Assembly: GCA_016939375.1 (NCBI GenBank)
Contig: JAFGHF010000063.1
Coordinates: 2,119 to 66,118, forward strand
DNA from: Candidatus Omnitrophota bacterium
GTDB lineage: Bacteria; Omnitrophota; Gorgyraeia; JAFGHF01
Length of the DNA: 64,000 nucleotides
Direction of reading: 5' to 3'
The notes beneath the pieces were generated by a model that worked only from the letters and a program-made list of their open reading frames with translations, made no database searches and was not told where the DNA came from. Both the position numbers and the translations under genes were made by a program. Every line of letters starts with the position of its first letter. Within the stretch, counting starts at the first letter, position 1. Below, piece after piece: positions 7,581-33,382 of the stretch.

Positions 7581-7587
7581 GTTTGTA

Positions 7588-7616: not shown

Positions 7617-7681
7617 ATGTTCCGGGCACATCTATGTGCCCTTCATCTATGAGTATAGCACAATATTAGGGTGCGGTCAAC

Positions 7682-8407: not shown

Positions 8408-8476
8408 GTCTCTTGGTTTCCTTAATAACCCTTATATCAAATCGCTATGGGCAAGTCAATATCTATAAATATGACG

Positions 8477-13258: not shown

Positions 13259-13290
13259 GCCGTCCGCTTTTTTATTTACACTCCATTTTA
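13259..13290. terminator. Palindromic hairpin between the PilP-like gene and mnmG
   Basis: GGACGGCcaaacgattgagaGCCGTCC; T-run on the plus strand, weaker U-run on the minus strand. Confidence 0.35.
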
Positions 13291-13686: not shown

Positions 13687-13687
13687 C

Positions 13688-14230: not shown

Positions 14231-14232
14231 TT

Positions 14233-15844: not shown

Positions 15845-16669
15845 TTACCAAAAAGTGACGAATTTCCCCAGGCCCAAGCTCACCCCCGGAGCTGAGCCGG
15901 TATCATAAGCCTCAAGCTCATTTACTTCCGGCCGGTTCCCGTTGACATTAAGTTTAAGATAACGCGCTGTTACCGAATCGAAGCTGACCGCGCCGCCGGG
16001 ACTCTCCACAGGGTTACTTACCGGCTGATAAGCGACATTATCTGTAGAATATTGTATCTGATATGAAGCGATCTGGTTGCCGTCAAATACTATCTTATCA
16101 AAATCGATCTGGCTGGCAAAATCGTGTTTGAGCCAGGAGCCGTTGCTTATGTTAGATTTCCATTTAGTATTACTGAGCCCATCGTTTGATTTATTGGCGG
16201 TATTTCCTCCTTGCGCCGAAGACGCGGAAGCCACGGCAGTCAAAGAAAGGTTGGGCCCATCTCCCCCAGCCGATACCTGTATATTTCGCTGCACGGCTTT
16301 TCTTTTGGCTATAGGATCATTATCATCGGGGATATAGCCTTCCGATTCGATTGTATATGTGCCGTCACCGTTATCGACAGTGGTGACGGTATACGTCCCT
16401 TCATAAGGGCCCTCTCCAAAAGGCTCATCTTCCTCGCCCCAGCCCACCGGCTCTTGGCCAATGGTCAGGGCCCATCTTGCTTTGGCTATCCCTGCCTCGG
16501 CTATATAAAAGGCCTGCATGTTGCGCAACCCCGCAGCGGAAGACCTTATTTCATAATGGACCATGGTCACAAAGGCCAGGACAACTACTGTCAGGCTGAT
16601 CAAGGTTATAAAGACAAAAATAAGCGCTGCTCCTGTTCTTTCTTTCGCGACTCCTGCATTCATCATCAT
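15845..16669 (-). CDS. PilX-like minor pilin with a C-terminal F5/8 type C (discoidin) carbohydrate-binding domain
   Basis: PilX_N-like N-terminus (ERTGAALIFVFITLISLTVVV), then a discoidin-like C-terminus (SNTKWKS...SWLKHDF...QIQYSTDNVAY...ARYLKLNVNGNRPEVNELEAY). Confidence 0.65.
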   Translation of the reverse strand: MMMNAGVAKERTGAALIFVFITLISLTVVVLAFVTMVHYEIRSSAAGLRNMQAFYIAEAGIAKARWALTIGQEPVGWGEEDEPFGEGPYEGTYTVTTVDNGDGTYTIESEGYIPDDNDPIAKRKAVQRNIQVSAGGDGPNLSLTAVASASSAQGGNTANKSNDGLSNTKWKSNISNGSWLKHDFASQIDFDKIVFDGNQIASYQIQYSTDNVAYQPVSNPVESPGGAVSFDSVTARYLKLNVNGNRPEVNELEAYDTGSAPGVSLGLGKFVTFW

Positions 16670-17178
16670 TGATTCCTGGCATATACGCTGGAGCTTAAAG
16701 TAAAGCTTTCCTCGGCCTTATTCATATCAAGAGAAATCGTAATCACCCGGATAGAGTCGCGCTTAGACTGTGAAGCGACATCCGCAGGCAAACTCATTAG
16801 GTCGTTATCCACATCGCGATAGGCAAGCGCAAAATCTTCCACATCAGATGCCAATGTCGTCTGGGTTGCCCCTTCTGTCCTGATCAGCTTGTTTGAGTTG
16901 ATTCCAAAAGCCACTGTCTCATCGCTGCCGTTGTCATCTAAGTCGGCCGTAAATGTTATTGCGTCTTCGTCGGCATCGGTAATACTGCTGGCCTGGCCCA
17001 GCTCACGCACCATCCGCTCCATGGCCAGAGAACTCTCTGATCTGATCTGACTGCGGTCTCTACTAGTGCCCCATACTCTTAAGCCCACGACAAAAACCCA
17101 GAGGGCCGAGACCACCAGCACGGAAAAAAGGGCCATTACTATTATTAATTCTATTAAAGTAAAACTTTTTTTACTCAA
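16666..17178 (-). CDS. Prepilin-type N-terminal cleavage/methylation domain minor pilin
   Basis: KKSFTLIELIIVMALFSVLVV class III signal with Glu+5. The -1 residue is Ser rather than Gly. Confidence 0.65.
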   Translation of the reverse strand: MSKKSFTLIELIIVMALFSVLVVSALWVFVVGLRVWGTSRDRSQIRSESSLAMERMVRELGQASSITDADEDAITFTADLDDNGSDETVAFGINSNKLIRTEGATQTTLASDVEDFALAYRDVDNDLMSLPADVASQSKRDSIRVITISLDMNKAEESFTLSSSVYARNQ

Positions 17179-17600
17179 TTTTTAGAGATATATGTCGCCA
17201 AGGCAACAGATATTTCATCAGATTTATATGTCCAATACGTCTTCACGATTACTTTTTTAAGGTCTATCTGGGGCTCGCTAACGATGACCTCTCTCTGAAA
17301 ACCGGGGAATCCGACTATATCCGCTTTAGCCTCATCGACGACTTCCGTATCAAAATCCAGGTTTTTAAACTCTTCCATCCTCTGCTGGGCCAAGTTCATG
17401 GCCACAGTCGTGCTCTCGGCATCATAACTGCTCACCAAGCCTGTGCTGAAAAGCCCTACCACAAAGACGACCCCCAGCACCATGATGATCAGGGTAATCA
17501 GGATTTCCAGCAATGTAAAAGCACGCCTCGTGATTCGTGATTCGCAGTTCGATATATTTATCACTTGCGTAAGCTCTTTATTAGGTTGGTTCATAAGCAT
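17175..17600 (-). CDS. Pseudopilin (GspI/PilV-like)
   Basis: RRAFTLLEILITLIIMVLG; the -1 residue is Ala; long N-terminal leader. Confidence 0.6.
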   Translation of the reverse strand: MLMNQPNKELTQVINISNCESRITRRAFTLLEILITLIIMVLGVVFVVGLFSTGLVSSYDAESTTVAMNLAQQRMEEFKNLDFDTEVVDEAKADIVGFPGFQREVIVSEPQIDLKKVIVKTYWTYKSDEISVALATYISKN

Positions 17601-17621: not shown

Positions 17622-17667
17622 AGGGACAGTTCTCCGATTGGCGCAAGAACCGGTCTTGATTTTTAGA
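17622..17667. repeat. Copy B of the ~41-46 nt element (pilin 3' UTR / intergenic)
   Basis: gggacagttctccgattggcgcaagaaccggtcttgatttt; same orientation as copy A. It is followed on the plus strand by a small CCCTC...GAGGG hairpin around a palindromic CTCTATATAGAG. Confidence 0.7.
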
Positions 17668-18127
17668 AGCCGCCGGTGCCGCTGGTGCCGTTGGAGATAT
17701 AAATATCATCATCGGGAGTGCCTTGAATAGCTCCTGTCCCGTTTACTCCCGTAATATCCGCCGCGCCGTCAGGGCCTACAGAAAAGATGACGTAGTAATC
17801 TGAATTGGTGCCGGCATCAGTGGCATATCTATATTGCACACCGGCGTCAAAGGGGTCATTGAGTATCTGGCCGATGATCTGCGGCGAAGCACCGGTAATG
17901 GCCGATTGCCAGCTGGTATTCACCGCCGCGCCCTGGCTGGGATATTGCCTGCTATTATGTATATAATATGACTCTACCGCTGCCGCCAGGCCACGCAACT
18001 CTCCCGCCGCCTTGGCTATATTACCTTCCTCCTGCATGCCCCTGAAGCGAGGCAGGGCAATACCGATTAAAATAGCAATCACGGTTATTACTATTAAAAG
18101 CTCGATGATAGTAAAACCTCTTTTCAT
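17663..18127 (-). CDS. Type IV major pilin / GspG-like major pseudopilin
   Basis: The true start is the internal ATG, giving MKRGFTIIELLIVITVIAILIGIALP (canonical G|FTxxE). An AAGGGGGAG RBS lies upstream. ~155 aa. Confidence 0.85.
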   Translation of the reverse strand: MKRGFTIIELLIVITVIAILIGIALPRFRGMQEEGNIAKAAGELRGLAAAVESYYIHNSRQYPSQGAAVNTSWQSAITGASPQIIGQILNDPFDAGVQYRYATDAGTNSDYYVIFSVGPDGAADITGVNGTGAIQGTPDDDIYISNGTSGTGGF

Positions 18128-18221: not shown

Positions 18222-19436
18222 TTATCGTCTAAGCAGCTTTATCATGTCAAACATAGGCAGAAGCATAGAGGCCATAATAAAGGCTACTATCGCGCCCATG
18301 ATGACCAAAAATACGGGCTCCAGGACAGTGGTGATCTTCTTTATGCTATAGTTTATGGCCCGGTCATAAAAATCACTGATCTTGTTCAACATCCCCTCTA
18401 GGTTTCCCGATTCCTCCCCCACAGAAATCATCTGTACTGTGTCTGGGGGAAATTCCGCGCTTACTTTGAGAGATTCAGAAAGCTTCTCCCCTTTTTCCGC
18501 AGCCATGCGCATTTGATAGATGACTTGGCCTAAGACTTCATTATCCACCACATCGCGGACTATATCTAAGGATTGCAAAATAGGCACACCGCTAGCAATT
18601 AAGGTAGAGAGCGTGCGCGCGAAGCGGGAAATGCAAGTTTTGCGTACCAGGGGCCCGATGACCGGAAGTTTTAGAGACAATCTGTCTATTTTTATCCTGC
18701 CGGCGGTGGTCTTTATATAAGCCTTAAAACCCACTCCTATTAAGCCGATGGCCAAAATCATAAGGTACCAAAACTGTTTAATGAAATTACCCAGGTGATA
18801 AAGTAAAATAGTGGCCGCCGGCATTGCTATCCCGGCGCGCTGGAATATTTCCACAAATTTGGGGATGACAAAGGTCACTATAAAGACAATCACTAAAGTG
18901 GCCGCGACAATCAAAATCGCGGGATAAAAAAGGGCCGCCCTTATCTTTTGCCTTAAGTCTTCCTGGGCCTCGGCGAATTCAGCATAGCGGTTGAGCACTT
19001 GGTCTAAATTGCCGCTGGCTTCACCGGCGGCGACCATACTTATGAAAAGCCGGGAGAAAACCCCTGGATACTGGGCAAAGCTTTGGGAAAGACTCAATCC
19101 CCCTTCAACGCTGCGGGCGACATTATCTATGATTTCTTTGAGTTTTCTGTTTTCGACCTGTTTCTTTAGCGTATCTAAACTGGACATTATGCTAAGACCT
19201 GAGTTGAGCATATTGGCCAGCTGAAGGTCAAACATCACTATCTCCTCGGTGCTGATCCTACGCAAGCCTTTACTGAGCTTCTCCAGGCTCACCCCCATTA
19301 AGGCCTCAGCAATATCGATAGGGGCATAGCCCATGCGCTTGAGCTTTTCAGCGACTTCGTCCTTGCTGGCTGCTTCGATAACGCCCTTGACCAGCTTGCC
19401 GCTGTTATCCCTAGCCTTGTAATTGTAATTTGGCAA
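18222..19436 (-). CDS. pilC: Type IV pilus / T2SS platform protein PilC (GspF family)
   Basis: 404 aa; two T2SSF repeats; polytopic. Confidence 0.9.
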   Translation of the reverse strand: MPNYNYKARDNSGKLVKGVIEAASKDEVAEKLKRMGYAPIDIAEALMGVSLEKLSKGLRRISTEEIVMFDLQLANMLNSGLSIMSSLDTLKKQVENRKLKEIIDNVARSVEGGLSLSQSFAQYPGVFSRLFISMVAAGEASGNLDQVLNRYAEFAEAQEDLRQKIRAALFYPAILIVAATLVIVFIVTFVIPKFVEIFQRAGIAMPAATILLYHLGNFIKQFWYLMILAIGLIGVGFKAYIKTTAGRIKIDRLSLKLPVIGPLVRKTCISRFARTLSTLIASGVPILQSLDIVRDVVDNEVLGQVIYQMRMAAEKGEKLSESLKVSAEFPPDTVQMISVGEESGNLEGMLNKISDFYDRAINYSIKKITTVLEPVFLVIMGAIVAFIMASMLLPMFDMIKLLRR

Positions 19437-19438: not shown

Positions 19439-21058
19439 TTAGGCCTCCTCAGTAACGCGCATGACTTCTTCCTGAGTAGTTATGCCCTGCTTGACCTTCT
19501 CATCGCCGTCCTGGCGCAGTGTGTGCATTCCCGCTTTTATCGCGGCCTTACGGATATCGTCGGTCGAAGTCTTGGAGTTAGTCAGTTTTCTTATCTCTTC
19601 GCCAGCCAGCATCAATTCAAAAATCCCTTTGCGCCCCTTATAGCCGGTATTGACACAGGAATCGCAGCCTTTTCCTTTACAATCTTTGCAAAGCATGCGT
19701 ACCAGCCTCTGAGCCAATACACCGATCACCGATGAGGCTATCAAAAACGGCTCCACCCCCATATCTATAAGCCTGGTAATCGCTGTCGGCGCGTCATTAG
19801 TATGCAAGGTGGAAAATACCAGGTGTCCCGTAAGCGCTGCCTGGACCGCGATCTCTGCGGTCTCTATGTCACGGATCTCCCCTACCATGATGACGTCCGG
19901 ATCCTGCCTTAAAATAGAACGCAGGCCCGTTGAGAATTCCAAACCCACCTTGTGATTGACCTGCATCTGGCGCACTCCGGGCAGATGATATTCAATCGGG
20001 TCCTCAATAGTGACGATATTCTTTTCTTCTGAATTGATTATATTTAAAGAGGCATAGAGAGTGGTCGTCTTGCCCGAACCGGTAGGGCCGGTGACCAAGA
20101 TTATCCCGTGCGGCCGCTTAATCAACTCTTCATATTTTTTTAATGTATCGGGCAAAAACCCCAGCTGCTCCAGCTTTAAAATAATACTGCTTCTATCCAA
20201 AAGGCGCAGGACCACATTCTCGCCATAAATGGTGGGCACGCAGGAAACGCGGATATCTATCTGCCGGCCTTCCATTTTGATCTGGAAACGGCCGTCTTGC
20301 GGTACCCTGTGCTCGGCGATATCCATATCGGAAAGTATCTTGATGCGCGAGACGATCGCCGATTGTAAAAACTTGGGCGGAGAAATACGCTCGTGCAATA
20401 CTCCATCTATCCTATAGCGGGTGCGTAAGGTCTCTTCTTCCGGTTCGATATGGATGTCACTGGCTCCCTGGCGCACAGCCTCGATGATCATCAAGTTGAC
20501 CATCTTGATGACCGGAGGCTCTTCTACTATCCCCTGGAGCTTTTTCAAATCCTTTTCCTGGCCCGGCTTGATCTTCAATGCCTCGACCTCTAAGCTACTG
20601 ATTACTTCTTCCATAGTGCCACGGGCCCGGTAATGTTCCTCCAAGGCCTTTTTGACTTCCGTTTCTGTAGCTATAGCCGGGTCGATCTCCATGCCAGTCT
20701 TAAGCCTCAATTCATCCAGGGCAAAGACATTCATAGGATCGGCCATGGCCACAGTCAGGCTCTTGCCGATTTTTAATACGGGGATAAGTATGTATTTTCT
20801 GGCCAAATCTTCGGGAACTAATTCGATTATCTTAGGGTCGATCAGGTAATTCTTAAGTTCGACATGCGGTATATTCAACTGTTGGCTTAAAAATACGGCT
20901 AAGTCCGTCTCGCTGATCACGCCTTTGGATACCAACACCTGGCGCAAGGGCTTGGCATTGGCCTTGGCTTCGATCTCGGCCTGTTTAAGCTGCTCGGCAT
21001 TGATAATGCCCTTTTCCAGAAGGCTCTGGCCCAGGGACTTCTTATCTTTCTTGGCCAT
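19439..21058 (-). CDS. pilB: Type IV pilus assembly ATPase PilB (GspE family) with an N-terminal MshEN/T2SSE_N domain
   Basis: Walker A GPTGSGKTTT, a tetracysteine CKDCKGKGCDSC, and N-terminal LGQSLLEKGIINAEQLKQAE / LRQVLVSKGVISETDL motifs. Confidence 0.95.
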   Translation of the reverse strand: MAKKDKKSLGQSLLEKGIINAEQLKQAEIEAKANAKPLRQVLVSKGVISETDLAVFLSQQLNIPHVELKNYLIDPKIIELVPEDLARKYILIPVLKIGKSLTVAMADPMNVFALDELRLKTGMEIDPAIATETEVKKALEEHYRARGTMEEVISSLEVEALKIKPGQEKDLKKLQGIVEEPPVIKMVNLMIIEAVRQGASDIHIEPEEETLRTRYRIDGVLHERISPPKFLQSAIVSRIKILSDMDIAEHRVPQDGRFQIKMEGRQIDIRVSCVPTIYGENVVLRLLDRSSIILKLEQLGFLPDTLKKYEELIKRPHGIILVTGPTGSGKTTTLYASLNIINSEEKNIVTIEDPIEYHLPGVRQMQVNHKVGLEFSTGLRSILRQDPDVIMVGEIRDIETAEIAVQAALTGHLVFSTLHTNDAPTAITRLIDMGVEPFLIASSVIGVLAQRLVRMLCKDCKGKGCDSCVNTGYKGRKGIFELMLAGEEIRKLTNSKTSTDDIRKAAIKAGMHTLRQDGDEKVKQGITTQEEVMRVTEEA

Positions 21059-21064: not shown

Positions 21065-21442
21065 TTACTCCTTGATGAGTCTTTTTATTTTATCCAGCAG
21101 TTCCTGTGGCTCAAAAGGCTTGGCCACATAATCATCCGCCTTGACATACTGGCACATCTCCTCGATACGCTTTTTCCAGTCTTCCTTGGCGGTGAAAATG
21201 ATCACGGGGATAGAGGCTGTCTCTTCGGTATGCTTGATCTCATAGCAGATATCATATCCGTTATTATCAGGCAACATAATATCCAATATTATCAGGTCTG
21301 GCTTTTTTTCCATGATCACTGCTTGGGCGTTTGCGCCGGTATCCAACTGCATCACTTCATAACCGTTAAACTCGAGGCGCTCTTTCAGCAATTCGAATAA
21401 ATATAACTCATCATCGATAATCAATATTTTTTTGCCTGACAT
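21065..21442 (-). CDS. Single-domain response regulator (CheY-like receiver), R1
   Basis: DD...D(54)...T...K receiver residues; 125 aa. Confidence 0.9.
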   Translation of the reverse strand: MSGKKILIIDDELYLFELLKERLEFNGYEVMQLDTGANAQAVIMEKKPDLIILDIMLPDNNGYDICYEIKHTEETASIPVIIFTAKEDWKKRIEEMCQYVKADDYVAKPFEPQELLDKIKRLIKE

Positions 21443-21443
21443 A

Positions 21444-21818
21444 TTATTCCCGCTCCTTTAGAAGTTTTTCTATTTTTCCCAAAAGCTCATCGGGTTTGAA
21501 GGGCTTAGTGATATATGCATCGGCACCGACCTCCTGGCCCAATTTTACATCTTCTTCTTGGGCCCGTGCCGAGAATAGTATTATGGGCACATCGATATAG
21601 TTGGTATCCCTTTTTAACAGGCCACAGACCTTGTATCCATCCATCTGCGGCAACATCAAATCCAAGATGATCAAATCCGGTTTTTCTTTATGCGCGATAT
21701 CAAGGGCCATCTTGCCATCGAAAGCGGTAATCACCTCATAGCCATTGGCCTTCAGCCTTGACTCTACCAGCTTTACAATATGGGGTTCATCATCGACAAC
21801 CAGTATTTTCTTGGGCAT
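21444..21818 (-). CDS. Single-domain response regulator, R2
   Basis: Receiver-only, 124 aa; paralog of 27703-28071. Confidence 0.9.
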   Translation of the reverse strand: MPKKILVVDDEPHIVKLVESRLKANGYEVITAFDGKMALDIAHKEKPDLIILDLMLPQMDGYKVCGLLKRDTNYIDVPIILFSARAQEEDVKLGQEVGADAYITKPFKPDELLGKIEKLLKERE

Positions 21819-21832
21819 AATAACACCTTTTT

Positions 21833-22195
21833 CTAAATATATATTTTGATCGCATCCAGCAGCTTCTGAGGCTCAAAAGGCTTAAAGAGATAATCAGTCA
21901 CCCCTAAGTCTTTGGCCGCTAGAATAGGATCGGTCTGGTCTTCGCAGGTAAGCATGATCACCGGAGTAAATCTTGTCTCTGGCTTAGAGCGTATCCTGCG
22001 CAAGGCCTCCAGACCATCCACGCCCGGCATGTGCACATCGAGCAGGATCAGATCAGGCCGCTCGGCTAAGGCCTTGACTACCGCCTCTTCTCCGTTTGTG
22101 GCTGTAGCCACCTCATAATAGTTGGCCTCTAACCGTGATTTTACTACTTTTATGATATTCGGCTCGTCGTCGACGACTAATATCTTCTTGGCCAT
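21833..22195 (-). CDS. Single-domain response regulator, R3
   Basis: Receiver-only, 120 aa. Confidence 0.9.
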   Translation of the reverse strand: MAKKILVVDDEPNIIKVVKSRLEANYYEVATATNGEEAVVKALAERPDLILLDVHMPGVDGLEALRRIRSKPETRFTPVIMLTCEDQTDPILAAKDLGVTDYLFKPFEPQKLLDAIKIYI

Positions 22196-22555
22196 TTACG
22201 CTTTCCCTATGTACTTCTCGATCTTCTCTAAAAGTTCCTCGGCCTTAAAAGGTTTGACCATGTAGTCATTTATCCCTTCAACAGCGAATAGGTCCTGCAT
22301 CGCCCCCTGGCCGGTGAGTACGATTACCGGTATCTCTCGTGAGGCCTTTCTTAGCCTGCGCACAAACGTATAGCCATCCATGGCAGGCATAAGTATATCC
22401 AGGATTATCAGGTCCGGATTTTCCTGCTCTACCCTTTCTAAGCCTTCTTTGCCGTTTGAGGCGGCGACTACTTCATAACCGTTGGCCTGCAGGCGGGACT
22501 TTAAGAGTTGGACAATGTGCGGTTCATCGTCGATCACTAAGATTTTTTTAGCCAT
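22196..22555 (-). CDS. Single-domain response regulator, R4
   Basis: Receiver-only, 119 aa; close paralog of R5. Confidence 0.9.
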   Translation of the reverse strand: MAKKILVIDDEPHIVQLLKSRLQANGYEVVAASNGKEGLERVEQENPDLIILDILMPAMDGYTFVRRLRKASREIPVIVLTGQGAMQDLFAVEGINDYMVKPFKAEELLEKIEKYIGKA

Positions 22556-22912
22556 TTATTCTTTCCTTAAATTTTTTTCGATCTTTTTTAGCAACTCGTC
22601 CGCATTGAATGGTTTTACGACGTAATCGGTTATCCCTTCTATAGCAAATAGATCTTTCATGCCTGATTTAGCTGTAAGCACGATGATGGGGATATCCCCA
22701 TCAGCCTTCTTTAGCCTCTTCACAAACGTATAGCCATCCATCTGCGGCATCAGGATGTCCAGGACAATCAGATCTGGATTTTCTTTTTGAAATCTCTCCA
22801 GGCCCTCTTCTCCGTTTGTAGCCGAAACCACCTCATAGCCGTTAGCTTGCAGGCGCGAGATAAGCACCTTTATTATATCAGGCTCATCGTCAATTACCAG
22901 GATTTTACTCAT
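22556..22912 (-). CDS. Single-domain response regulator, R5
   Basis: The true start is the internal MSKILVIDDEP. The longer track ORF overlaps the upstream kinase. Confidence 0.85.
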   Translation of the reverse strand: MSKILVIDDEPDIIKVLISRLQANGYEVVSATNGEEGLERFQKENPDLIVLDILMPQMDGYTFVKRLKKADGDIPIIVLTAKSGMKDLFAIEGITDYVVKPFNADELLKKIEKNLRKE

Positions 22913-22928
22913 TTTTTCCTCTTTTCGT

Positions 22929-24086
22929 TTAGCTTTTGGGTAAGGTAAAAATAAACTTTGTCCCCTGATCCAATTTGCTTTCCGCCCGGATCTTGCCTTT
23001 ATGCAACTGGACAATCCCTTTGGCGATGGAAAGTCCAAGGCCCGTACCTTTCTCGCCCGGGCCAGCCATGCGGCCGAATTGCTCAAATTTATCGAAAAGT
23101 TTGGGCAGATCCTCCGGTGCGATACCAGGCCCTGTGTCGGCTACGGAGCATTCTACTGTCTCCCCCTCATCGCGCACAGCAATCTCTACATGGCCTTTTT
23201 GGGTAAATTTCAAGGCATTGTTGAGTAGATTGGCAAAGACCTGAGTAATCTTATCTTTATCGGCTGAGATCTCTATTTTTTCAGCCGGCAGATTTGTCTT
23301 TATCTCTAAACTTTTCTTTTGGGCAAGAGGGCCAAAGGTAGAGCCGACCGATCTGGCCAAGGCCACGATGTCAAGGGGTGCCTTTTTGATCTCAACCTTT
23401 CCTGCTTCTATCTTAGATATATCCAGAAGATTGTCAATTATTCTTTTTAAGCGGTCGATATCCTCCAGGCACATAGTCAAAAATTCCTGTTGTTCTTTAG
23501 TGGTGCCCCCCAGAATACCGTCTAAGACCTGAGACACTGTCTCTCTTATCGTAGTCAGGGGAGTGCGCAATTCATGGGATACCGTGGAAATAAAATCGCT
23601 TTTTATCTGGTTGAGCTTCATAAGCTGCTTGTTGGCTACCTGTAACTTCTCGGCGTAAGCCCGGGTCTGCGCTTCCAGGCGTTCTCTTTCTTTTTTATTC
23701 CCGTAATTTTCGACAGTTCTCTTCAGCGCCAGGGACAGGCTGCCCTTGGGCACATCGTCTTTGACCACATAATCGTAGGCCCCTATTTTCATCACCTCAG
23801 CGGCTATCTTTTCATCACCCTCTCCGGTAGCCATAATCACCGGTATATCCACATTATTTTCTTTGAGTTTTTTCACCATCTCCAATCCGGTCATGCCCGG
23901 CATCTTATAATCCACGACAATCAGGTCAAACGTATCGGCGCTTATCTTATCTAATCCCTCAGCCCCTGAGCGGCAGACGGTGACTTCGATATCGAAATCC
24001 TCATTGCCAAGCAAGGCTTCTCTCTCTATCTCCCGGTCTATGGGGCTGTCATCCACTAAGCATACTTTTAGTTTTTTCTTTGACAT
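22929..24086 (-). CDS. Cytoplasmic hybrid histidine kinase (REC-HisKA-HATPase)
   Basis: N-terminal receiver, then HisKA FISTVSHELRTPL and HATPase GTGLGLSIAKGIV. No TM. Confidence 0.9.
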   Translation of the reverse strand: MSKKKLKVCLVDDSPIDREIEREALLGNEDFDIEVTVCRSGAEGLDKISADTFDLIVVDYKMPGMTGLEMVKKLKENNVDIPVIMATGEGDEKIAAEVMKIGAYDYVVKDDVPKGSLSLALKRTVENYGNKKERERLEAQTRAYAEKLQVANKQLMKLNQIKSDFISTVSHELRTPLTTIRETVSQVLDGILGGTTKEQQEFLTMCLEDIDRLKRIIDNLLDISKIEAGKVEIKKAPLDIVALARSVGSTFGPLAQKKSLEIKTNLPAEKIEISADKDKITQVFANLLNNALKFTQKGHVEIAVRDEGETVECSVADTGPGIAPEDLPKLFDKFEQFGRMAGPGEKGTGLGLSIAKGIVQLHKGKIRAESKLDQGTKFIFTLPKS

Positions 24087-26897
24087 CTAAACACTCTCGG
24101 CACTCTTTTTTTGTTTTTGCTTTTTTAAAATAGTAAAATAGAACGTACTGCCTTTACCAACTTCTGATTCAACCCATATCCTCCCGCCGTGTTGCTCGAC
24201 GATCTTTTTGCATATAGTCAGGCCCGCTCCCGTACCTTTATCTTCATCGGTATCCAAACGTTGAAATAGGCCAAATACCGTATCCAGGTGCTCTTTTGGT
24301 ATGCCCTGTCCATTGTCCCTTACGTAAAGGCAAAATTCCGCTGGCGAATCCTCTTTGCAGCCTATCTCTATCATGGGCTTTGGCTTATCATTATATTTTA
24401 TAGCATTAGTGATCAGATTTGTAAATAGCTGAGATATCCTTACTTTTTCAAATTTAATCGTGGGTAACTTTTGGGCTTTTAGCTCGGTATTGCTTTCTTT
24501 GAGACGTACGGTAAGGTCTTCTCTTATCTCATCGATAAGTCTGTTTAAATCTATTTCCTCCAGAGACGCCCTGCGCCGGGCGATCCTGGATAGCTCCAGG
24601 AGGTCTTTGATTAAGGTCTGCATCTTTTGCACCGACCTTTGAATGACGTCTAAATAATGCTTGCCCTGCTCATCCAGTTTATCTTTATATTTATCGTGCA
24701 AAAATTGGCTGAAGGAGGCTATCCCACGCAGCGGTTCCTTTAGGTCGTGCGAGACTACATAGGTAAAATCGTCCAGCTCCTTGTTCGACCGCTCCACCTC
24801 TATTATTTTCTCTTGCAGCTTGTCTTTGGCCTGCTTTAAGTCCCGGCTGGTGGCATTTAAGTCTTCGACCATCAAAAGCATGGCCTTGTCGCTTTTCTGC
24901 AGTTTCTCCACCTGCTCTTGTAATTGTTTTCCCGTCTTGGAAAGTTCCTCGAGTAGTCTTTTATATTCGCGTACATCCCTGGCCGCCAAAATAGCGCTGG
25001 TGGTCTTGCCCTCCTGGTCCTTAAAGGGCACGCCGTTAAAGCTTACCGGAATAGAACGTCCCTGCTTGTCCTTTAGCTCAATCTCTAAGTTAGATACACC
25101 CTGGCCCTGGAGTATTATCTTTTTGATGATCGCCAGGTCTTTCTCTCCGGCCATAAAGAAATCACTTATCGGCCTTTTTATTATCTCGCTTCTGTCATAT
25201 TCTAAAAGTCTGGCGGTAGCGTTGTTCACGGTCTTGATCCTGGCGTTTTTATCGATGACCAAAAGCGCATCATTCATATTTTCGATGATATTGTCCACAT
25301 AGTCTTTAGAAAATGTGGTCTCGCGAAGATTTGCGCTCATCTGCCGGAATGCATTGGCCAGCTGGCCTATCTCGTTCTTGGTCTCTAAGGCCCTGATATC
25401 GCCCATCTGCACATCCAACCGCCCCCGGGCCACACTATCCATCTTATCCGCTAATTGAGTGAATGTATCGGTCATTTTGGAAGCGAAAATATAAGCAACG
25501 CTTGAACCCAAAACTATTGCCAATACGCAGACAAAGACTATCTGGTTTCTGATATTGTTTACGCCTTTAAAAAACTCATCCAAATAAGCCACGGCAGCGA
25601 TCATCCAATCCCAGGGCTGAAAATAAGTATAGGCTAATATTTTTAGCCTGGGGCTTGAGCTCCCGCGCCCTTGGTAAAGGTAAGATATGATCCTGCTCTC
25701 ACCCGGATCCAAGCTAGACGCACTCTCCACGATCTCGCTGATGAAAAGTTTTCCTTGGACATCTTTATCCAAAAGCGCATCCTGACCATCACGGGTGCGG
25801 TTTTCGGACAATATATAGCGGCCCCTTTTTTCGCCCTGGGCGCCGATGAGGCAAAGGTATCCACTCTGTCCTATTTTTTGCCTGGCCATCAAATCTTTGA
25901 GTTGCTCTTTTTTTATTTCCTCAAAGTCGGCTGCTAAGAGGTCCTGGGGATAAAAGGCCACGGCTACAATCCATTCTTTCTGCGGGATGTGCATTATAGC
26001 GACTACCTTTTGGTTTTCCTTATCTTCTATGCTATCCCGCCAATTATATGCGCTATGGCCGATCTCGCCTTCCTTTAGAGACTTTCCTATCACGATAACG
26101 TCACGAAATACAAATTTACCGTCCTGATTTTCCGCATACCAGATATTTTCCCCATCCCGGACGCGGTTCTTGGAAAGTATATAATTACCTTCATAATCGA
26201 GGATGTAAATATAACCGTTTTGACCCACTACCGTGGAGGCTAAAAGGTCGATCAGCTGCGTGTCCATCTGCCTGCTGGACATCTGGTTTATCATATTATC
26301 GAATTGGGATTCCAGCTCGCTGCCCGCCAGCTCCACCTCTTTGTCGTTTACTCCACCGGTCACTCTTTCTCTCATCTTGACAATGCGCATCACCCGGTCG
26401 TATTCGGATAACGCCTTGTCAACGGCTTCTGTATTTATGCCCAATTTTTTGGCTCTCTCAAGGACCCCGGAGACCTCCGCCATAGCTAAGTCAAACTCCT
26501 TGACATAGGCGCTAAACTCGTCCATAGCAAAGCTAAAAAGGAGCATGTTCTTTTCGTATCTTCTGGCCCGCAAAAGCGGCTCTTTGAGCGTATCCGCGTC
26601 GACCTGGGCGCCGATATTTTTGCTGATCAGCTCTTGGACTCCTTTAGCCTGGGAAGTGGCAATATCCTTTGTCTTATCCAAAGCGGCGTCTTTGTTTCCC
26701 TCGACCAGATCATAATATGCCCGGGTAGTGATAAACCAGTCCAGGCATTGGGCCTTCAGCGATTCTTTGATATTTTTAAGTATGGCCTCTTTGGCGCTAT
26801 TGTAGCTTAGTATACCCAGCCCAATAACCGGGATGGTGACCAAAATAACGCATATAGCCATCAGCTGGCTCTTAATGCTTATATCGCCTGTTTTCAT
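24087..26897 (-). CDS. Membrane sensor histidine kinase (periplasmic Cache-like, HAMP, PAS, HisKA, HATPase)
   Basis: 936 aa; two TM segments flanking a ~420 aa extracytoplasmic region; HisKA FTYVVSHDLKEPL; HATPase GTGAGLTICKKIV. Confidence 0.88.
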   Translation of the reverse strand: MKTGDISIKSQLMAICVILVTIPVIGLGILSYNSAKEAILKNIKESLKAQCLDWFITTRAYYDLVEGNKDAALDKTKDIATSQAKGVQELISKNIGAQVDADTLKEPLLRARRYEKNMLLFSFAMDEFSAYVKEFDLAMAEVSGVLERAKKLGINTEAVDKALSEYDRVMRIVKMRERVTGGVNDKEVELAGSELESQFDNMINQMSSRQMDTQLIDLLASTVVGQNGYIYILDYEGNYILSKNRVRDGENIWYAENQDGKFVFRDVIVIGKSLKEGEIGHSAYNWRDSIEDKENQKVVAIMHIPQKEWIVAVAFYPQDLLAADFEEIKKEQLKDLMARQKIGQSGYLCLIGAQGEKRGRYILSENRTRDGQDALLDKDVQGKLFISEIVESASSLDPGESRIISYLYQGRGSSSPRLKILAYTYFQPWDWMIAAVAYLDEFFKGVNNIRNQIVFVCVLAIVLGSSVAYIFASKMTDTFTQLADKMDSVARGRLDVQMGDIRALETKNEIGQLANAFRQMSANLRETTFSKDYVDNIIENMNDALLVIDKNARIKTVNNATARLLEYDRSEIIKRPISDFFMAGEKDLAIIKKIILQGQGVSNLEIELKDKQGRSIPVSFNGVPFKDQEGKTTSAILAARDVREYKRLLEELSKTGKQLQEQVEKLQKSDKAMLLMVEDLNATSRDLKQAKDKLQEKIIEVERSNKELDDFTYVVSHDLKEPLRGIASFSQFLHDKYKDKLDEQGKHYLDVIQRSVQKMQTLIKDLLELSRIARRRASLEEIDLNRLIDEIREDLTVRLKESNTELKAQKLPTIKFEKVRISQLFTNLITNAIKYNDKPKPMIEIGCKEDSPAEFCLYVRDNGQGIPKEHLDTVFGLFQRLDTDEDKGTGAGLTICKKIVEQHGGRIWVESEVGKGSTFYFTILKKQKQKKSAESV

Positions 26898-27697
26898 TTT
26901 AACTCTATCCTGCTTTTTAGGGCGGCTATTCGGTCTTGCAGCTCTTTCATCCTGAACTCTCTATTTATCGTCGCCTCACGGAACCTCTCCAGCTCATCCA
27001 GCTTTTCTTTAAGTTCGCGGGTGCGTTCTTCTACTTTTTTCTCCAACTCCTGGTTTAGTTTTCTGATAGTGTCCTGGGCCCTTCTGCTTTCGGTATTGTC
27101 AATCATGGAAAATATCAATCCCTGCTCCAAGTTATCTTTATTAATCGCCCTTAATATCACCAGCGTGGGCACGCGGTGGCCATCCATGTGTACGTAATCG
27201 TATTCATAACTGACACGGTCGAGCCTTACTATATTTTGATAGATGAGTTCCTGATTGACTCGCCGATACTCCTCTTCGCTTGGGTAGATAAAAGCCAGGG
27301 AAGGTTCGCTCATCCACCTCTCTACCGGCCAACCTAAGATATCCTCGGCGGCCTTGCTTATCCAGATGACTTTATCATTTTTGACGAAAAAAATGGCAGC
27401 CGGTGAATCTCCTAATATCGCCGACAAAAGCTTGCGCGAGCTATCCATCTTCTCCATTTTTTCGATTGTCTGGCGGTATTGCGAATCCGCGGTATTGAGC
27501 ATAAACAAAAGCGCTATCGTGGCCAATCCTATACCTACCAACTGAATAAATACTTCTACCCAGCTAAGTGAACCGGCAGGCATCTTGAAAAGCAGGTGTG
27601 GTATATCGAATAACTTGGCCAGTAGCGCCAAAAGTATCAATAGGGCAAACATCACCCCAGCGATCAGCTGTGGACGAAAACCACCATTATTCTCCAT
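26894..27697 (-). CDS. Membrane-anchored PAS domain protein with a C-terminal coiled-coil (no kinase domain)
   Basis: Two N-terminal TM helices, a PAS-like segment and a C-terminal LERFREATINREFRMKELQDRIA coiled-coil. Confidence 0.55.
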   Translation of the reverse strand: MENNGGFRPQLIAGVMFALLILLALLAKLFDIPHLLFKMPAGSLSWVEVFIQLVGIGLATIALLFMLNTADSQYRQTIEKMEKMDSSRKLLSAILGDSPAAIFFVKNDKVIWISKAAEDILGWPVERWMSEPSLAFIYPSEEEYRRVNQELIYQNIVRLDRVSYEYDYVHMDGHRVPTLVILRAINKDNLEQGLIFSMIDNTESRRAQDTIRKLNQELEKKVEERTRELKEKLDELERFREATINREFRMKELQDRIAALKSRIELK

Positions 27698-27702
27698 GGG
27701 CC

Positions 27703-28071
27703 CTATTCCCCTAATAACTGTTTTATCTTACCAAAAAGCTCCTCTGGCTCAAAAGGTTTAGCTATATAGGCATCCGCACCAACCTCATCTCCCAGCTTTC
27801 TGTCTTCTTCCTGGGCCTTGGCCGAGAAAAGTATGATCGGAATATCTTTGTATCTTGAGTCTTTTTTAAGCAAAGCGCAGACTTTATACCCGTCCATTTT
27901 AGGAAGCATCAGATCCAATATTATCAAGTCGGGATTTTCATTCCGCGCTTTATCTAATGCGGCCTGGCCGTCATTGGCAGAAATGACTTCATAGCCTGCC
28001 GCTTCGAACCTCATCGTCATCATCTCTACCAGCTGAGCCTCATCGTCAACAAGTAAGATCTTTTTGCTCAT
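27703..28071 (-). CDS. Single-domain response regulator
   Basis: 122 aa receiver; paralog of R2. Confidence 0.9.
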   Translation of the reverse strand: MSKKILLVDDEAQLVEMMTMRFEAAGYEVISANDGQAALDKARNENPDLIILDLMLPKMDGYKVCALLKKDSRYKDIPIILFSAKAQEEDRKLGDEVGADAYIAKPFEPEELFGKIKQLLGE

Positions 28072-28080
28072 CTGCTCCTC

Positions 28081-30390
28081 TCATTTCAGTTTATCCATTA
28101 TTTCGCTGATATTCTTCACTTCATCCGGATAAGTCAGGTAATCGAAATGTAACTCCACTTTTTTGGCCAATCTCTGTAACGCAAGATAGTCATCTAAGTT
28201 CTGTTTTAATCTTGCTCCTACCCTAAAGACGTTCTCTCTGTCGCACTCGGTTAATACGACAACGACCCCGCCAAAGACCTTTAGGGCCATATCTCCTTCG
28301 CGGCGTAAAGTGCTCTTTAATACCTCTTCCATTATGGTCAACAGGGACTCGATTTCCGCGTCGGAAAAGTTCTTCTTTAGTTTCTCTAGATTGCCTATAG
28401 CCACTGTTATCAAAGAAAGTTTTGTATCTTTTTCCTGGGCCTCCTGGACCACATTATTGATGTATTCCTCAAAAAACCTCATGGTAGTATATTTAGGCAA
28501 GGTAAAGATAAATTTCGTGCCTCTTTCAAACTTATCATGCCTTCTGGCATAGGGACTTTCGGCCCAGATGTCCCCGCCGTGCATATGCACGATCTCCCGG
28601 GCGATGGAAAGCCCCAGGCCCGTGCCCTTCTCGCCTCCTCCGGCAACCCGGCCGAACTGCGAGAATTTATCAAACAATTTAGGCAGGTCTTCTTCAGCAA
28701 CCCCTACTCCCGTATCCGCCACCGAACATTCAATATCGTCCTTTTTCTCGTTCAAGCTGACTTTGATATAACCGCTTTCAGTAAATTTAATCGCGTTATA
28801 GATCAAGTTGGTAAATATCTGGGTCACTCTATCCGAATCAGCGTATATATCGATCCTTTTTTGCGGTAGGACTACCTTAAGCTGCAGACCCCTTTCTTCG
28901 ACTTTTGGCTGCAAGGTAGTAACGACCTGTTGCACGATGCTCTTGATATTGACCAGTTCTCTTTTAAGCGTGATCTTTCCCGATTCGATCTTTGATATAT
29001 CAAGCAGGTTATTGATTATCCTGGCCAATCTATCGATGTTGTTCCTGGCGGTATTGAGGATCTTGCCCTGTTTTTCGTTTATCTCACCCGGTATCTCGTC
29101 CAATATAAGACTAATACCCTCTTTAGTGATTGAAAGGGGTGTACGCAACTCATGCGACACCGTGGAAATGAACTCAGATTTCAAGCGGTCCAGTTCCTGT
29201 AACCTCTTATTGTTCTGCTCCAATTCTTTATAGAGTAGTTTAATGGCTTGGTTGGTCTTATTCAGACCCCAGGTCTGTATCTCTAGGTCATCCTTTATCT
29301 TTCTTAAAATCTCTTCCGCTTTTTTGCGCTCGGTAATATCTACATTCACCTCAGCCACCAGCCATCTGCCGTTTTCGTCCTGGAAAGGCGTAGTGGTGAC
29401 CTGTATGGGCCTGTTTCCTTCTTTAGGCATAGTCTCTTCTGTGACTACGGTCTTTTTTGTCTTCAAGGCCTGGGGGATACCACAGTTAGGACACATCGTA
29501 TCCCGGTCGGCGAAGTATTGATAACATTTCTTTCCTTTAGGGTCTCCGTATAACTTCTGCCATGCCGGGTCGACATATACAATATTAAAATCTGAATCGA
29601 TAATATCGATGTTTGTCTTGGTGGCGCCCAGGATATACTCGATCTGCTGCTTCAATCTTAAGAGTTCTTCCTGAGTCTCTTTTCTGCCCGTAATGTCCTC
29701 GACGATCATCAAGACCTTTTTTTCTCCGGCCTCTTTTAAAGGTACGCCGATAAAATTCCTCACCGTGGTCTTGTTACTGAAATAAGGGGTATATGTGATA
29801 TTATCCATCTGGAAGTCTCTGCCTTCCAATGCCGCCTTTATCTTTTGGGAAAGGCCGATCGTTTTATAAGTAGGCAGGGTAAAGACATTGAGCGACTTGA
29901 ACTTCTTATATGTATCGCCGGATATTTGTATCATTGCCGGATTTACGTAATCGATAGTTCCCCTGCTATTCACCACATAAATGCCAAACGGCGCTTTTTC
30001 AATAATACTGCGGGTCGTCTTGTAGGCCTGGGCGATGTCTCTCTCCGCCCTCTTAGGCCTTTCTAATAATAAACGGATGGTTTTTGCACTGGGGCCACCG
30101 ACCAACTCGACACCTTGCGGCTTCTCTCTCAGCAGCCTCTGATAATTTTGATGATTACCGCTGAGATCTACTATCTCGTTTAGGCCTTTCAATCTGATAA
30201 ATTTTTTCCAGTCTTTGGCCGTCGGTATGCCTAACCTCCTGGCCAATTTTATGCCCGGCGCTTTAGGGTTTTTATCCACAATCCCTATTATATTTACGGG
30301 CGGAGAATCCTTGTTTACCATCTCCAGAAGTGCGCTTGCACATTCTCCCGCGCCAACTATAAGTATATTTGTCTTTTTTTTAGCTGCCAT
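28081..30390 (-). CDS. Multidomain sensor histidine kinase (N-terminal Rossmann-like domain, 2 PAS, HisKA, HATPase, C-terminal degenerate GGDEF-like)
   Basis: ILIVGAGECASALLEMV...IIGIVDKNP (Rex/CoA-binding-like), PAS segments (one carrying C-x2-C...CPNC), HisKA FISTVSHELRTPL, HATPase, and a C-terminal ~130 aa with ...ALKVFGGVVVVL. Confidence 0.8.
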   Translation of the reverse strand: MAAKKKTNILIVGAGECASALLEMVNKDSPPVNIIGIVDKNPKAPGIKLARRLGIPTAKDWKKFIRLKGLNEIVDLSGNHQNYQRLLREKPQGVELVGGPSAKTIRLLLERPKRAERDIAQAYKTTRSIIEKAPFGIYVVNSRGTIDYVNPAMIQISGDTYKKFKSLNVFTLPTYKTIGLSQKIKAALEGRDFQMDNITYTPYFSNKTTVRNFIGVPLKEAGEKKVLMIVEDITGRKETQEELLRLKQQIEYILGATKTNIDIIDSDFNIVYVDPAWQKLYGDPKGKKCYQYFADRDTMCPNCGIPQALKTKKTVVTEETMPKEGNRPIQVTTTPFQDENGRWLVAEVNVDITERKKAEEILRKIKDDLEIQTWGLNKTNQAIKLLYKELEQNNKRLQELDRLKSEFISTVSHELRTPLSITKEGISLILDEIPGEINEKQGKILNTARNNIDRLARIINNLLDISKIESGKITLKRELVNIKSIVQQVVTTLQPKVEERGLQLKVVLPQKRIDIYADSDRVTQIFTNLIYNAIKFTESGYIKVSLNEKKDDIECSVADTGVGVAEEDLPKLFDKFSQFGRVAGGGEKGTGLGLSIAREIVHMHGGDIWAESPYARRHDKFERGTKFIFTLPKYTTMRFFEEYINNVVQEAQEKDTKLSLITVAIGNLEKLKKNFSDAEIESLLTIMEEVLKSTLRREGDMALKVFGGVVVVLTECDRENVFRVGARLKQNLDDYLALQRLAKKVELHFDYLTYPDEVKNISEIMDKLK

Positions 30391-30408
30391 TTCTTATGCC
30401 TATAAGTT

Positions 30409-30774
30409 TTAGAGGAGTTTTTTGGCTGCTTCCAAAAGCGGAGTATGGTCGCTGGTCTTGACGCAATAATCGTCAGCGCCGGCCTTTCTGGCCTCTACCG
30501 CGTCTATGGCATCGACGTTACCGGTCATGATGATTATTTTAGGCTTATCCGGCCCCGAGGCCTCTCTGATCCTGCGGCAGGCCTCAAAACCGCTTATACC
30601 CGGAAGCAGAGTATCCAAAACGATTATATCCGGTTTTTCGCAAGCCGCTTTTTCCACACCCAGCTCACCGGTCTCAGCTATAATTATGTCCTCAAAACCG
30701 GCTTTAGCCAAAAAGCGTTTCATAATCTTTCTGTCCTGTTCATTATCATCGATAATCAAAAGTTTTTTGCCCAT
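30409..30774 (-). CDS. Single-domain response regulator
   Basis: 121 aa receiver. Confidence 0.9.
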   Translation of the reverse strand: MGKKLLIIDDNEQDRKIMKRFLAKAGFEDIIIAETGELGVEKAACEKPDIIVLDTLLPGISGFEACRRIREASGPDKPKIIIMTGNVDAIDAVEARKAGADDYCVKTSDHTPLLEAAKKLL

Positions 30775-30777
30775 ATC

Positions 30778-31263
30778 TCACTCCTTGGGGATATCCGGAT
30801 TCGGTAATTTATTAATCATATTCCAATAAAAATTAAATCCTTCCACAACTTTTACAAAGTCGTCGTAATTAAGCGGCTTGGGGATAAAGCTGGCCGCTCC
30901 GTCTCTATAACTTCTGGCGATATCCTCTTGGTCTCTGGAGGAAGTAAGCATGACTATAGGGATATAGTTGTAGCGGATATCTTTTTTTAAGGCCTCTAAT
31001 ACCTGGAAGCCGTCCATCTTTGGCAGATTGATATCTAAAAGGATCAGATCGGGGCGAGGAAATTTCTCCTTGTCCTGGTATTTACCCTCGTGACGGATAA
31101 AATCCAACGCCTCTTCTCCGTCATTGACCACATATATATTATTTTTAATCTTCACCTTGGAAAAAGCTCTTAAGGTTATTTTTATATCTGTCTCATTATC
31201 TTCGACCAAAAGGATGTCTAAAGGTTTGCTATTTTTTTCCTCTTGGCTGAAATGCTCCTCCAT
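30778..31263 (-). CDS. Single-domain response regulator (start uncertain)
   Basis: Receiver domain LDILLVEDNETD...D...K. The start is probably the internal MEEHFSQ. The track ORF extends to 31338, overlapping the upstream kinase. Confidence 0.8.
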   Translation of the reverse strand: MEEHFSQEEKNSKPLDILLVEDNETDIKITLRAFSKVKIKNNIYVVNDGEEALDFIRHEGKYQDKEKFPRPDLILLDINLPKMDGFQVLEALKKDIRYNYIPIVMLTSSRDQEDIARSYRDGAASFIPKPLNYDDFVKVVEGFNFYWNMINKLPNPDIPKE

Positions 31264-31300
31264 AGATCTCTCCTCTTCTTTAGGACCTTTCGTGTTGTAA

Positions 31301-33346: not shown

Positions 33347-33382
33347 ATAGATAACTTTGGTTATAATGGTTTATAAAATAGA

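Follow-up and report, generated by a model that had tools for sequence, protein, structure and literature searches.

In a 64-kb stretch of DNA from a Candidatus Omnitrophota bacterium (contig JAFGHF010000063.1; the whole stretch of 64,000 nucleotides is called the window below), we examined an array of five genes for stand-alone receiver (REC) proteins. The array lies on the minus strand at 21065-22912, directly ahead of pilB, the gene for the extension ATPase of a type IVa pilus. An earlier note on this DNA had described five back-to-back CheY-like single-domain receivers with gaps of 0-14 nucleotides (nt) and pilB 6 nt on, and both the open reading frames (ORFs) and Pfam agree with that description. 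The gaps between the receiver genes are 0, 0, 14 and 1 nt; a REC-HisKA-HATPase_c kinase gene precedes the first of them (22556-22912) by 16 nt, and 6 nt separate the last (21065) from pilB. The genes are listed here under class labels (A-H) of our own, which come from a clustering of the receivers of the window and of related loci (bootstrap 0.59-1.0) and were extended by BLAST and class alignments. Names such as L001 denote related loci, and lengths are in amino acids (aa).

22556-22912, minus strand: stand-alone receiver, class A; 118 aa from the ATG at 22912; Pfam Response_reg 6.8e-30
22196-22555, minus strand: stand-alone receiver, class A'; 119 aa; paralogue of 22556; Pfam Response_reg 3.7e-31
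21833-22195, minus strand: stand-alone receiver, class E; 120 aa; Pfam 4.5e-31; 57% identity to L001_8864
21444-21818, minus strand: stand-alone receiver, class B; 124 aa; Pfam 1.9e-29; 82% identity to L001_9223
21065-21442, minus strand: stand-alone receiver, class C; 125 aa; Pfam 2e-25; identical to MBN3039112.1

Read towards pilB, the array has the order A, A', E, B, C and is the largest among the loci compared. Each of the five proteins consists of a single Response_reg domain of near full length (Pfam E-values 2e-25 to 4.5e-31), and all five qualify at the Pfam cutoff as single-domain response regulators. Their alignment bears out the statement that the phospho-acceptor residues are intact: the DD pair, the phospho-Asp, the Thr/Ser and the Lys are kept in every one, as is an aromatic switch Tyr three residues ahead of the conserved Lys.

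The receivers are not recent copies of one another. Pairwise protein identity among the five is 38-50%, except for the A/A' pair (22556 versus 22196), and even that pair, the closest, shares only 70% of its protein and 68% of its DNA sequence, which does not fit the 'recent duplicates' of the earlier note. A second pair is equally similar, since the class B receiver of the array (21444) and a copy further upstream that we call B' (27703) are identical at 69% of protein and 67% of DNA positions; B' in turn is 77% identical to L001_3663 and 73-75% identical to the lone class-B gene of other lineages. We therefore rejected recent amplification of a single gene, given the identities of 38-50% (70% for A/A') and the orthologues of each class found elsewhere. 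By sequence comparison, the five tandem receivers are four anciently separated classes (A/A', E, B and C). For class C, 28 sequences (∼27 orthologous clusters) could be aligned, and D10, D11, D54, T84 and K108 are invariant in all of them; Cys66 does not vary either, and the class also shares a conserved Trp in alpha-4 and the motif 'VKADDY'.

The likeness to the Pseudomonas regulators PilG and PilH that had been drawn for these receivers holds as an analogy of function, but probably not as a family relationship. OmpR/PhoB/RpaB/PleD/DivK-type receivers rank first in NCBIfam for all five proteins. The best PDB sequence matches of class C are RpaA, YycF, PhoP, MtrA, RR468, PleD and DivK, with CheY lower. 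An AlphaFold2 model of class C, made from the 28 sequences (pLDDT 90.8), has the standard fold of a single (beta-alpha)5 domain, in which helix alpha-4 is long; the nearest solved folds are RpaA-REC, DivK and RR468. By the rankings of hidden Markov models (HMMs), PDB sequences and folds, the receivers appear closer to OmpR, DivK and RR468 than to CheY or PilG/PilH, and they probably do not group with the CheY proteins of chemotaxis. Naming them as members of a known subfamily was rejected because no NCBIfam model reaches its cutoff for any of them; NF045717 (DVU0259_DivK), for example, gives the five receivers 73.6-97.7 bits against a cutoff of 160.

The signalling block upstream of the array

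The array is part of a larger unit. The two upstream kinases that had been counted with it do have the domains ascribed to them, but the set of five receivers plus two kinases is a slice of one with nine RECs and four kinases: upstream of the array and these two kinases the genes continue on the same strand with gaps of at most 37 nt, adding four stand-alone RECs, two kinases and one membrane PAS protein. The resulting signalling-plus-pilus block runs for ∼20.5 kb on the minus strand, from 33766 down to 13288, and holds 23 genes with no gap larger than 94 nt; nine stand-alone RECs and four HisKA-type histidine kinases occupy the 12.7 kb ahead of pilB-pilC-pilin-minor pilins-pilMN-pilO. The four kinases comprise two periplasmic dCache sensors and two cytoplasmic ones. 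A search with an HMM built from the window receivers located 10 REC domains in the window, every one of them within 21065-33766; nine are the stand-alone receivers and the tenth is fused to the kinase at 22929-24086. From the start of the block to the array, the genes are as follows.

33383-33766, minus strand: stand-alone receiver, class D'; first gene of the block; Pfam Response_reg 3.3e-30; clusters with L019_9608 and L106_6615
31301-33346, minus strand: membrane sensor kinase, dCache_1-HAMP-HisKA-HATPase_c (Pfam); H-box 'SHDLRAPL'
30778-31263, minus strand: stand-alone receiver, class H, with an extended C-terminus; Pfam Response_reg 2.1e-19; 81% identity to L001_505; its ORF is open as far as 31338
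30409-30774, minus strand: stand-alone receiver, class G; Pfam 4.9e-24; orthologues in L001, L021 and L103
28081-30390, minus strand: cytoplasmic kinase, PAS-PAS-HisKA-HATPase_c plus a degenerate GGDEF (Pfam; GGDEF 3.5e-7)
27703-28071, minus strand: stand-alone receiver, class B'; Pfam 1.8e-28; a conservative copy of class B
26894-27697, minus strand: PAS-domain membrane protein with a coiled-coil tail; Pfam PAS 6e-6; orthologue in L001; overlaps the next gene by 4 nt
24087-26897, minus strand: membrane sensor kinase, dCache-HAMP-PAS-HisKA-HATPase_c (Pfam); 64% identity to its L105 orthologue
22929-24086, minus strand: cytoplasmic REC-HisKA-HATPase_c kinase (Pfam); 0-nt gap to the preceding kinase gene

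The Pfam scan covered 57 ORFs of the window (the ORFs of the locus and, from 3.7 to 64 kb, all those of 120 aa or more). CheA, MCP, Hpt, CheW, sigma-54 activators and secretins were not found among them, nor were H-kinase_dim or MCPsignal domains, in agreement with the earlier statement that PilR or another sigma-54 activator, Hpt, CheA and MCP are lacking; one relative, L103, does have MCP, CheA (with Hpt), CheY and CheB. No NtrC-type activator (REC-AAA+-helix-turn-helix) is present in the window, where each REC protein either stands alone or forms part of a kinase. No RNA gene was found in the window by the Rfam and tRNA scans.

The spacing of the genes is consistent with co-transcription of the receivers with pilB, as had been proposed. 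Scans for promoters and terminators were at chance, with counts of 38 versus 30.8±5.7 expected and 22 versus 19.8±4.8, and so speak neither for nor against one operon. Two of the candidate -35/-10 matches lie at positions of interest, one upstream of the first receiver (33855-33827) and a weak one in the 94-nt gap before the pilin gene (18190-18162), with the scan as a whole doing no better than chance.

Receiver arrays and probable kinase pairing in related loci

Related loci for comparison were gathered either by way of class-C receiver orthologues or by way of PilB alone, the second route being independent of the receivers. A metagenome scan from an alignment of five PilB proteins used patterns (ASDIHIE and EKNIITI) that proved too generic and returned PilB of many phyla at no more than 54% identity; these loci, 76 of them evaluable, served as a background control. 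The REC classes recur as arrays of one to five genes directly upstream of pilB in 10 related loci, listed here with the kinases and other signalling genes noted ahead of the array, and with the receivers in order towards pilB (x, unclassified receiver).

L018 (via class C): kinase-PilZ, kinase-degenerate GGDEF; receivers A B D C
L019 (via class C): dCache kinase-degenerate GGDEF; receivers D' C A B
L020 (via class C): kinase-degenerate GGDEF; receivers A B D C
L103 (via class C): MCP, CheA, CheY, CheB, REC, kinase, kinase; receivers A B D C
L105 (via class C; PilB 79% identity): dCache kinase, REC-kinase; receivers x C B
L001 (via PilB, 80% identity; a metagenome-assembled Omnitrophota genome, the closest locus): receivers E B C
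L106 (via PilB, 73%; 1.55-Mb genome): receivers x B
L107 (via PilB, 66%; Omnitrophica WOR_2): receivers A B
L023 (via PilB, 54%): receivers x B F
L024 (from the distant-PilB set): a single receiver, class B

All four PilB-selected loci (PilB identity at least 54%) have at least two tandem stand-alone RECs touching pilB, compared to only 4 of the 76 evaluable distant-PilB loci, drawn from many phyla, with even one stand-alone REC within 500 nt upstream of pilB. Of these 4 distant-PilB loci, only L023, which is also among the PilB-selected loci, has three RECs. The linkage to pil genes in relatives, whose absence the earlier note had named as part of what would refute its reading, is thus conserved. 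Class B is present in every classified array linked to pilB (L001, L105, L106, L107, L018, L019, L020, L103, L023 and L024), and the other classes vary in presence; the clade-wide core is a kinase, a class-B receiver and pilB. On a further contig (P0019), a single REC touches pilB and class C lies ∼8 kb upstream.

The chemotaxis genes of L103 lie at 1-4420, directly upstream of its kinases, array and pilB; they encode MCP, a CheA that contains Hpt, CheW and REC domains, a receiver like CheY, CheB and a further receiver. L019 has a CheR-TPR gene at the equivalent position.

The related loci also bear on which kinases could serve the receivers. The two dCache kinases of the window have a common H-box, 'SHDL(K/R)xPL', and the two cytoplasmic kinases share 'SHELRTPL', but the cytoplasmic kinases differ just after the H-box, in the helix on which receivers dock, so that two types of DHp can be told apart. 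Type I is found in the kinase at 28081 (TPLSITKEGISL; 'SITKEGISL') and in all degenerate-GGDEF kinases of relatives, and type II in the kinase at 22929 (TPLTTIRETVSQ; 'TTIRETVSQ'), the L001 REC-kinase and L021_8426. Helix alpha-1 of the class-B receivers co-varies with this difference. A 'QLVEM'-type alpha-1 goes with type I DHp in the receiver at 27703, which adjoins the kinase at 28081, and in the lone class B of L018, L019, L020, L103 and L105, whereas 'HIVKLVES' goes with type II DHp in the receiver at 21444 and its L001 orthologue. The pairing extends to L105, whose REC-kinase has a type I-like DHp. Between B and B' (21444 versus 27703), 10 of 21 alpha-1 positions are identical (counted by hand on the alignment), compared to 69% overall. 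Divergence focused on alpha-1 is the pattern expected for a duplicated receiver that is being insulated towards a new kinase, as known from the specificity of two-component systems. Because class-B alpha-1 changes in step with the DHp type of the kinase, the comparison supports the local kinases as the probable phospho-donors of the receivers.

Gene order adds a second level. Class G has orthologues in L001, L021 and L103, each of them between one sensor kinase and one cytoplasmic kinase, and the overall arrangement suggests a two-tier cascade in which a membrane sensor kinase would act on a receiver, fused or free, this receiver on a cytoplasmic kinase, and the latter on the small receivers.

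Pilus genes and cyclic di-GMP leads

The genes that follow the array, together with a retraction ATPase gene ∼4 kb upstream of the block and outside it, encode a type IVa pilus set of PilB, PilC, class III pilin, PilM/N/O and PilT.

19439-21058, minus strand: PilB extension ATPase with an N-terminal MshEN; Pfam T2SSE 8.5e-141, MshEN 1.1e-21
18222-19436, minus strand: PilC platform protein; Pfam T2SSF 9.5e-67; NCBIfam GspF and PilC models
17663-18127, minus strand: major pilin; class III signal (N_methyl) and T2SSG-like fold (Pfam); 94-nt gap after pilC; L001 orthologue with the same start Met
15845-17600, minus strand: three minor pilins (Pfam), the last of which (15845-16669) has PilX_N and F5/8 type C (discoidin) domains
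14233-15825 and 13688-14230, minus strand: PilM-PilN fusion and PilO, respectively (Pfam); NCBIfam pilM 158.4 versus cutoff 133
within 13288-15825, minus strand: 132-aa protein with a weak T2SSB match (Pfam)
37925-38995, minus strand: PilT/PilU-family retraction ATPase; TIGR01420 376.8 versus cutoff 319.1

A type II secretion system was considered, since the pilin and PilC match GspG and GspF, and was rejected because PilM and PilT pass the cutoffs of their pilus models and TIGR02538 is the top NCBIfam match of PilB, at 640.5 bits and under its own cutoff of 675.65. No PilQ secretin domain was found among the window ORFs scanned; it may be encoded elsewhere in the genome.

Several features of the pilus genes vary among relatives. 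L001 lacks all three minor pilins. A minor pilin with PilX_N and discoidin domains, the latter sugar-binding, is also present in L019 (15660-16460), L106 (14188-14988) and L107 (14731-15591), and this discoidin-domain pilin could be a tip adhesin. Compared to L018, L019 and L020, the PilB proteins of the window and L001 are missing ∼25 residues between the two Cys pairs of the zinc-binding region (residues ∼461-462), and many 539-aa PilB orthologues probably have the short form as well. A small gene of the 23S_rRNA_IVP/bAvd family lies between pilB or pilC and the pilins in L020 (10570-10920) and L107 (11676-12059); bAvd proteins are accessory factors of diversity-generating retroelements. L106 carries, at 1-6172 and immediately upstream of the receiver-linked cluster, a second cluster resembling those of pili and type II secretion, with a PilB-like ATPase, PilC, GspG/J/K-like pseudopilins, PilMN and PilO.

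Cyclic di-GMP (c-di-GMP) is a lead for a second input to pilus control. The N-terminus of PilB passes NCBIfam NF053729, a c-di-GMP motif model, with 43.4 bits versus a cutoff of 38. A stand-alone 154-aa MshEN protein encoded far from the pil genes (47992-48456, minus strand) also passes it, with 48.4 bits. In six loci, the GGDEF motif of the type I kinase is replaced: the window (28081-30390, minus strand), L001 (1369-3675), L018 (7212-8759), L019 (6332-9580), L020 (3148-6033) and L103 (5249-8734). The replacements include VFGGV, VNERV, DEGEI, DTGDL and DTGEI, and most copies retain an RxxD-like 'REGD' just upstream; such a degenerate GGDEF on a histidine kinase could be a module for sensing c-di-GMP or GTP, or for docking. 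Histidine kinases with a C-terminal PilZ adjoin the receiver array and pilB in L018 (5236-7215) and on the P0019 contig, and in L019 the pil genes have a REC-GGDEF gene at their flank. Among the window ORFs scanned, Pfam detected no GGDEF, EAL or HD-GYP that is catalytically intact.

The window also holds other genes. Downstream of the pil genes lie mnmG (tRNA modification; identified by eye) and a nitrogen block on the minus strand (1-10435), which is just downstream of them and comprises a gltB fragment (1-3450, by eye), glnA (3761-5092), amtB (5633-6916), a GerE-type helix-turn-helix protein (7001-7516), a GAF-ANTAR regulator (7682-8407) and asnB (8477-10435). A 93-aa reading frame with a Fis-like helix-turn-helix is contained in the first 3.8 kb of the window, and a ParA/MinD-like ATPase with a C-terminal glycogen-binding module (AMPK1_CBM/CBM48) is encoded at 45481-46527 on the plus strand.

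Possible modes of action

Output-less receivers that control type IV pili are known. EmvR of Xanthomonas oryzae is a single-domain regulator that binds PilB and represses its ATPase, and it shares its kinase with a classical regulator (PMC11973254). DrdR of X. campestris, which consists of receiver domains only, binds both PilB and PilT and stimulates both (PMC13507683). The array receivers are like these two in having no output domain, an intact phospho-Asp and HisKA kinases as likely feeders, where EmvR and DrdR are marked by direct contact with the pilus ATPases and by a branched 'one-to-two' histidine-kinase system. They are unlike them in genomic setting: EmvR and DrdR are proteobacterial orphan single genes that are not beside pilB, whereas in the window and its relatives one to five receivers of distinct classes, for which contact with the motor would be a prediction, are encoded before pilB along with kinases.

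Other known systems share fewer features. In the Pil-Chp system of Pseudomonas and Xanthomonas, at least two single-domain receivers, PilG and PilH, control extension and retraction post-translationally, and one of them is thought to be a sink. Pil-Chp has ChpA (a CheA with Hpt), the MCP PilJ and homologues of CheW, CheR and CheB, while none of these was found in the window, the array receivers sit beside HisKA kinases, and only L103 adds a Che cluster upstream of its equivalent array. PilS-PilR is likewise a two-component system beside pil genes, but PilR is a REC-AAA+-helix-turn-helix sigma-54 activator with no counterpart in the window; PilR-like proteins of ∼470 aa do occur near pilB in other phyla of the background set. 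DivK (in the Caulobacter DivJ/PleC-DivK system) and RR468 (in Thermotoga HK853-RR468) are single-domain receivers that work with HisKA kinases and are the closest solved sequences and folds, but they have no known link to pili. Finally, the window PilB shares its N-terminal MshEN with the c-di-GMP receptors of the MshE/PilB type (PMC5013675, PMC6957770); positions of the motif are substituted, and binding would be a prediction from sequence.

The earlier note had proposed non-transcriptional signalling, and with receivers that have no output domain and no DNA-binding regulator in the locus, we consider such a mode of action likely. Because the receivers lack an output domain and the block holds no DNA-binding partner for them, they would act by protein contact, and because their position directly before pilB is conserved, the pilus motor is the leading candidate for the target. 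In the model that we favor, the membrane kinases would sense external ligands and signal to the cytoplasmic kinases via a receiver that is either fused (the REC-kinase at 22929) or free (class G or H). The cytoplasmic kinases would phosphorylate the small receivers, and these would then act by contact, most probably on the type IVa pilus motor and on PilB first, tuning pilus extension without transcription. Receivers that share a kinase would compete for phosphoryl groups, and some may serve mainly as sinks or timers. c-di-GMP probably feeds in as well, through the MshEN of PilB, the degenerate-GGDEF kinase and the PilZ-kinase fusions of relatives. We hold the full model, in which output-less receivers phosphorylated by the kinases act by contact on the motor, with moderate confidence, and direct binding of the receivers to PilB in particular with less. 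A Spo0F-type phosphorelay was rejected as the principal reading because neither an Hpt nor a Spo0B-like protein is present.

Several observations weigh against this model. We infer the motor as the target from gene neighbourhood alone, and it is gene spacing that supports the operon structure, since the promoter and terminator scans were at chance level. Most contexts were found via class C, which biases the sample, and four are free of this bias. In L021 and L104, class C is found with no pil genes beside it, and the L104 copy shares 86% identity with its pil-linked counterpart in L019; in L022, lipid A genes follow an array of three RECs. Array order and membership vary even between the window, L001 and L105, and such variability would suit a network with loose coupling no less than a dedicated device. 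In the MshEN of PilB, compared by eye with the consensus for a pair of motifs, each 24 residues long, RLGxx(L/V/I)(L/V/I)xxG(L/V/I)(L/V/I)xxxxLxxxLxxQ (PMC5013675), the first half carries S8, E28 and A31 where the consensus has R, L and Q, and the second half R39 where it has G.

The receivers may instead belong to a general branched kinase network parked beside the pil genes, acting as DivK-like allosteric feedback elements, as kinase connectors or on targets other than the pilus; they would then adjoin pilB because a compact genome passes neighbouring genes on together. Such a network is favored by the class-C genes and entire REC arrays found apart from pil genes (L021, L104 and L022), as do the shuffled array order among relatives, the presence of DivK and RR468 among the nearest solved relatives, and class G, whose place between sensor and cytoplasmic kinases in the window, L001, L021 and L103 suggests a connector between kinases. 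However, adjacency to pilB persists down to PilB identities of ∼51-54% and holds for 4 of 4 PilB-selected loci versus 4 of 76 distant ones, class B is always present and is often the very gene that touches pilB, and the intergenic gaps are just 1-19 nt. We regard the network as possible but doubtful.

The array could be mostly a phosphate sink, as has been proposed for PilH and second CheY proteins, with one receiver signalling and the others draining phosphoryl groups so that the response is sharpened or shortened. Classes A, A', E and B have closely similar alpha-1 helices (DDEPxI[IV]K..SRLxAN.Y), which suggests a shared kinase, and receivers outnumber kinases by 9 to 4 in the window and by 4 to 1-2 in L018 and L020. 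Sinks, however, would have little need of the distinct classes that have been kept over long divergence with surfaces of their own (in class C, Cys66, the Trp and 'VKADDY'), which point to separate partners; moreover, array size ranges from 1 to 5, yet class B is always kept. This explanation seems to us distinctly unlikely.

The c-di-GMP leads raise the prospect that pilus control runs through this nucleotide altogether, with the MshEN of PilB as the sensor and with receivers and kinases that set or read its level and never touch the motor. This would account for two MshEN matches to NF053729 above its cutoff (the N-terminus of PilB and the protein encoded at 47992-48456), the degenerate GGDEF on the type I kinase in six loci, the kinase-PilZ fusions (L018 and the P0019 contig) and the REC-GGDEF gene flanking the L019 pil genes. 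It is nonetheless improbable: the scanned window ORFs include no intact GGDEF, EAL or HD-GYP, the MshEN motifs of PilB deviate at conserved positions, and the stand-alone receivers would be left without a role. Indirect control of pil transcription, through a DNA-binding partner or a sigma/anti-sigma factor encoded elsewhere, could make use of a separately regulated promoter in the 94-nt gap before the pilin (the weak -35/-10 at 18190-18162), but neither the block nor the related loci encode a DNA-binding regulator, a sigma-54 activator or a partner-switching module, and we consider this highly improbable.

Returning to receivers that act by contact on the pilus motor, a more elaborate version can be imagined in which each conserved class (B in all cases, A, C, D and E in some) docks on a different motor component (PilB, PilT, PilC or PilM-N), and several sensor inputs, periplasmic as well as cytoplasmic, are merged with c-di-GMP into a decision to extend, retract or hold, a chemotaxis-free 'phospho-code' for contact with host or prey. 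We think that this version is unlikely.

Type IVa pili are present in nearly all Omnitrophota and have been linked to symbiosis or predation and to attachment to host or prey (PMC10066038). The terms "two-component" and "response regulator" are absent from that paper, the main genomic survey of the phylum, and we found no description of receiver arrays beside pilB in Omnitrophota in the literature searched, where most papers of subscription journals were outside the coverage, so that this is not proof of absence. The control of type IV pili by output-less receivers is of a known kind; the layout described here, with its clade-wide core of kinase, class-B receiver and pilB, is probably a conserved and undescribed way of pilus control in Omnitrophota. 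The module of kinase, class-B receiver, accessory receivers and pilB offers testable candidates for the machinery that decides on pilus extension in an uncultured and possibly parasitic phylum. If the model is true, it would be an example from nature of one molecular machine controlled by a set of output-less receivers with no kinase of the chemotaxis type involved, and would extend what is known from the recent single genes EmvR and DrdR.

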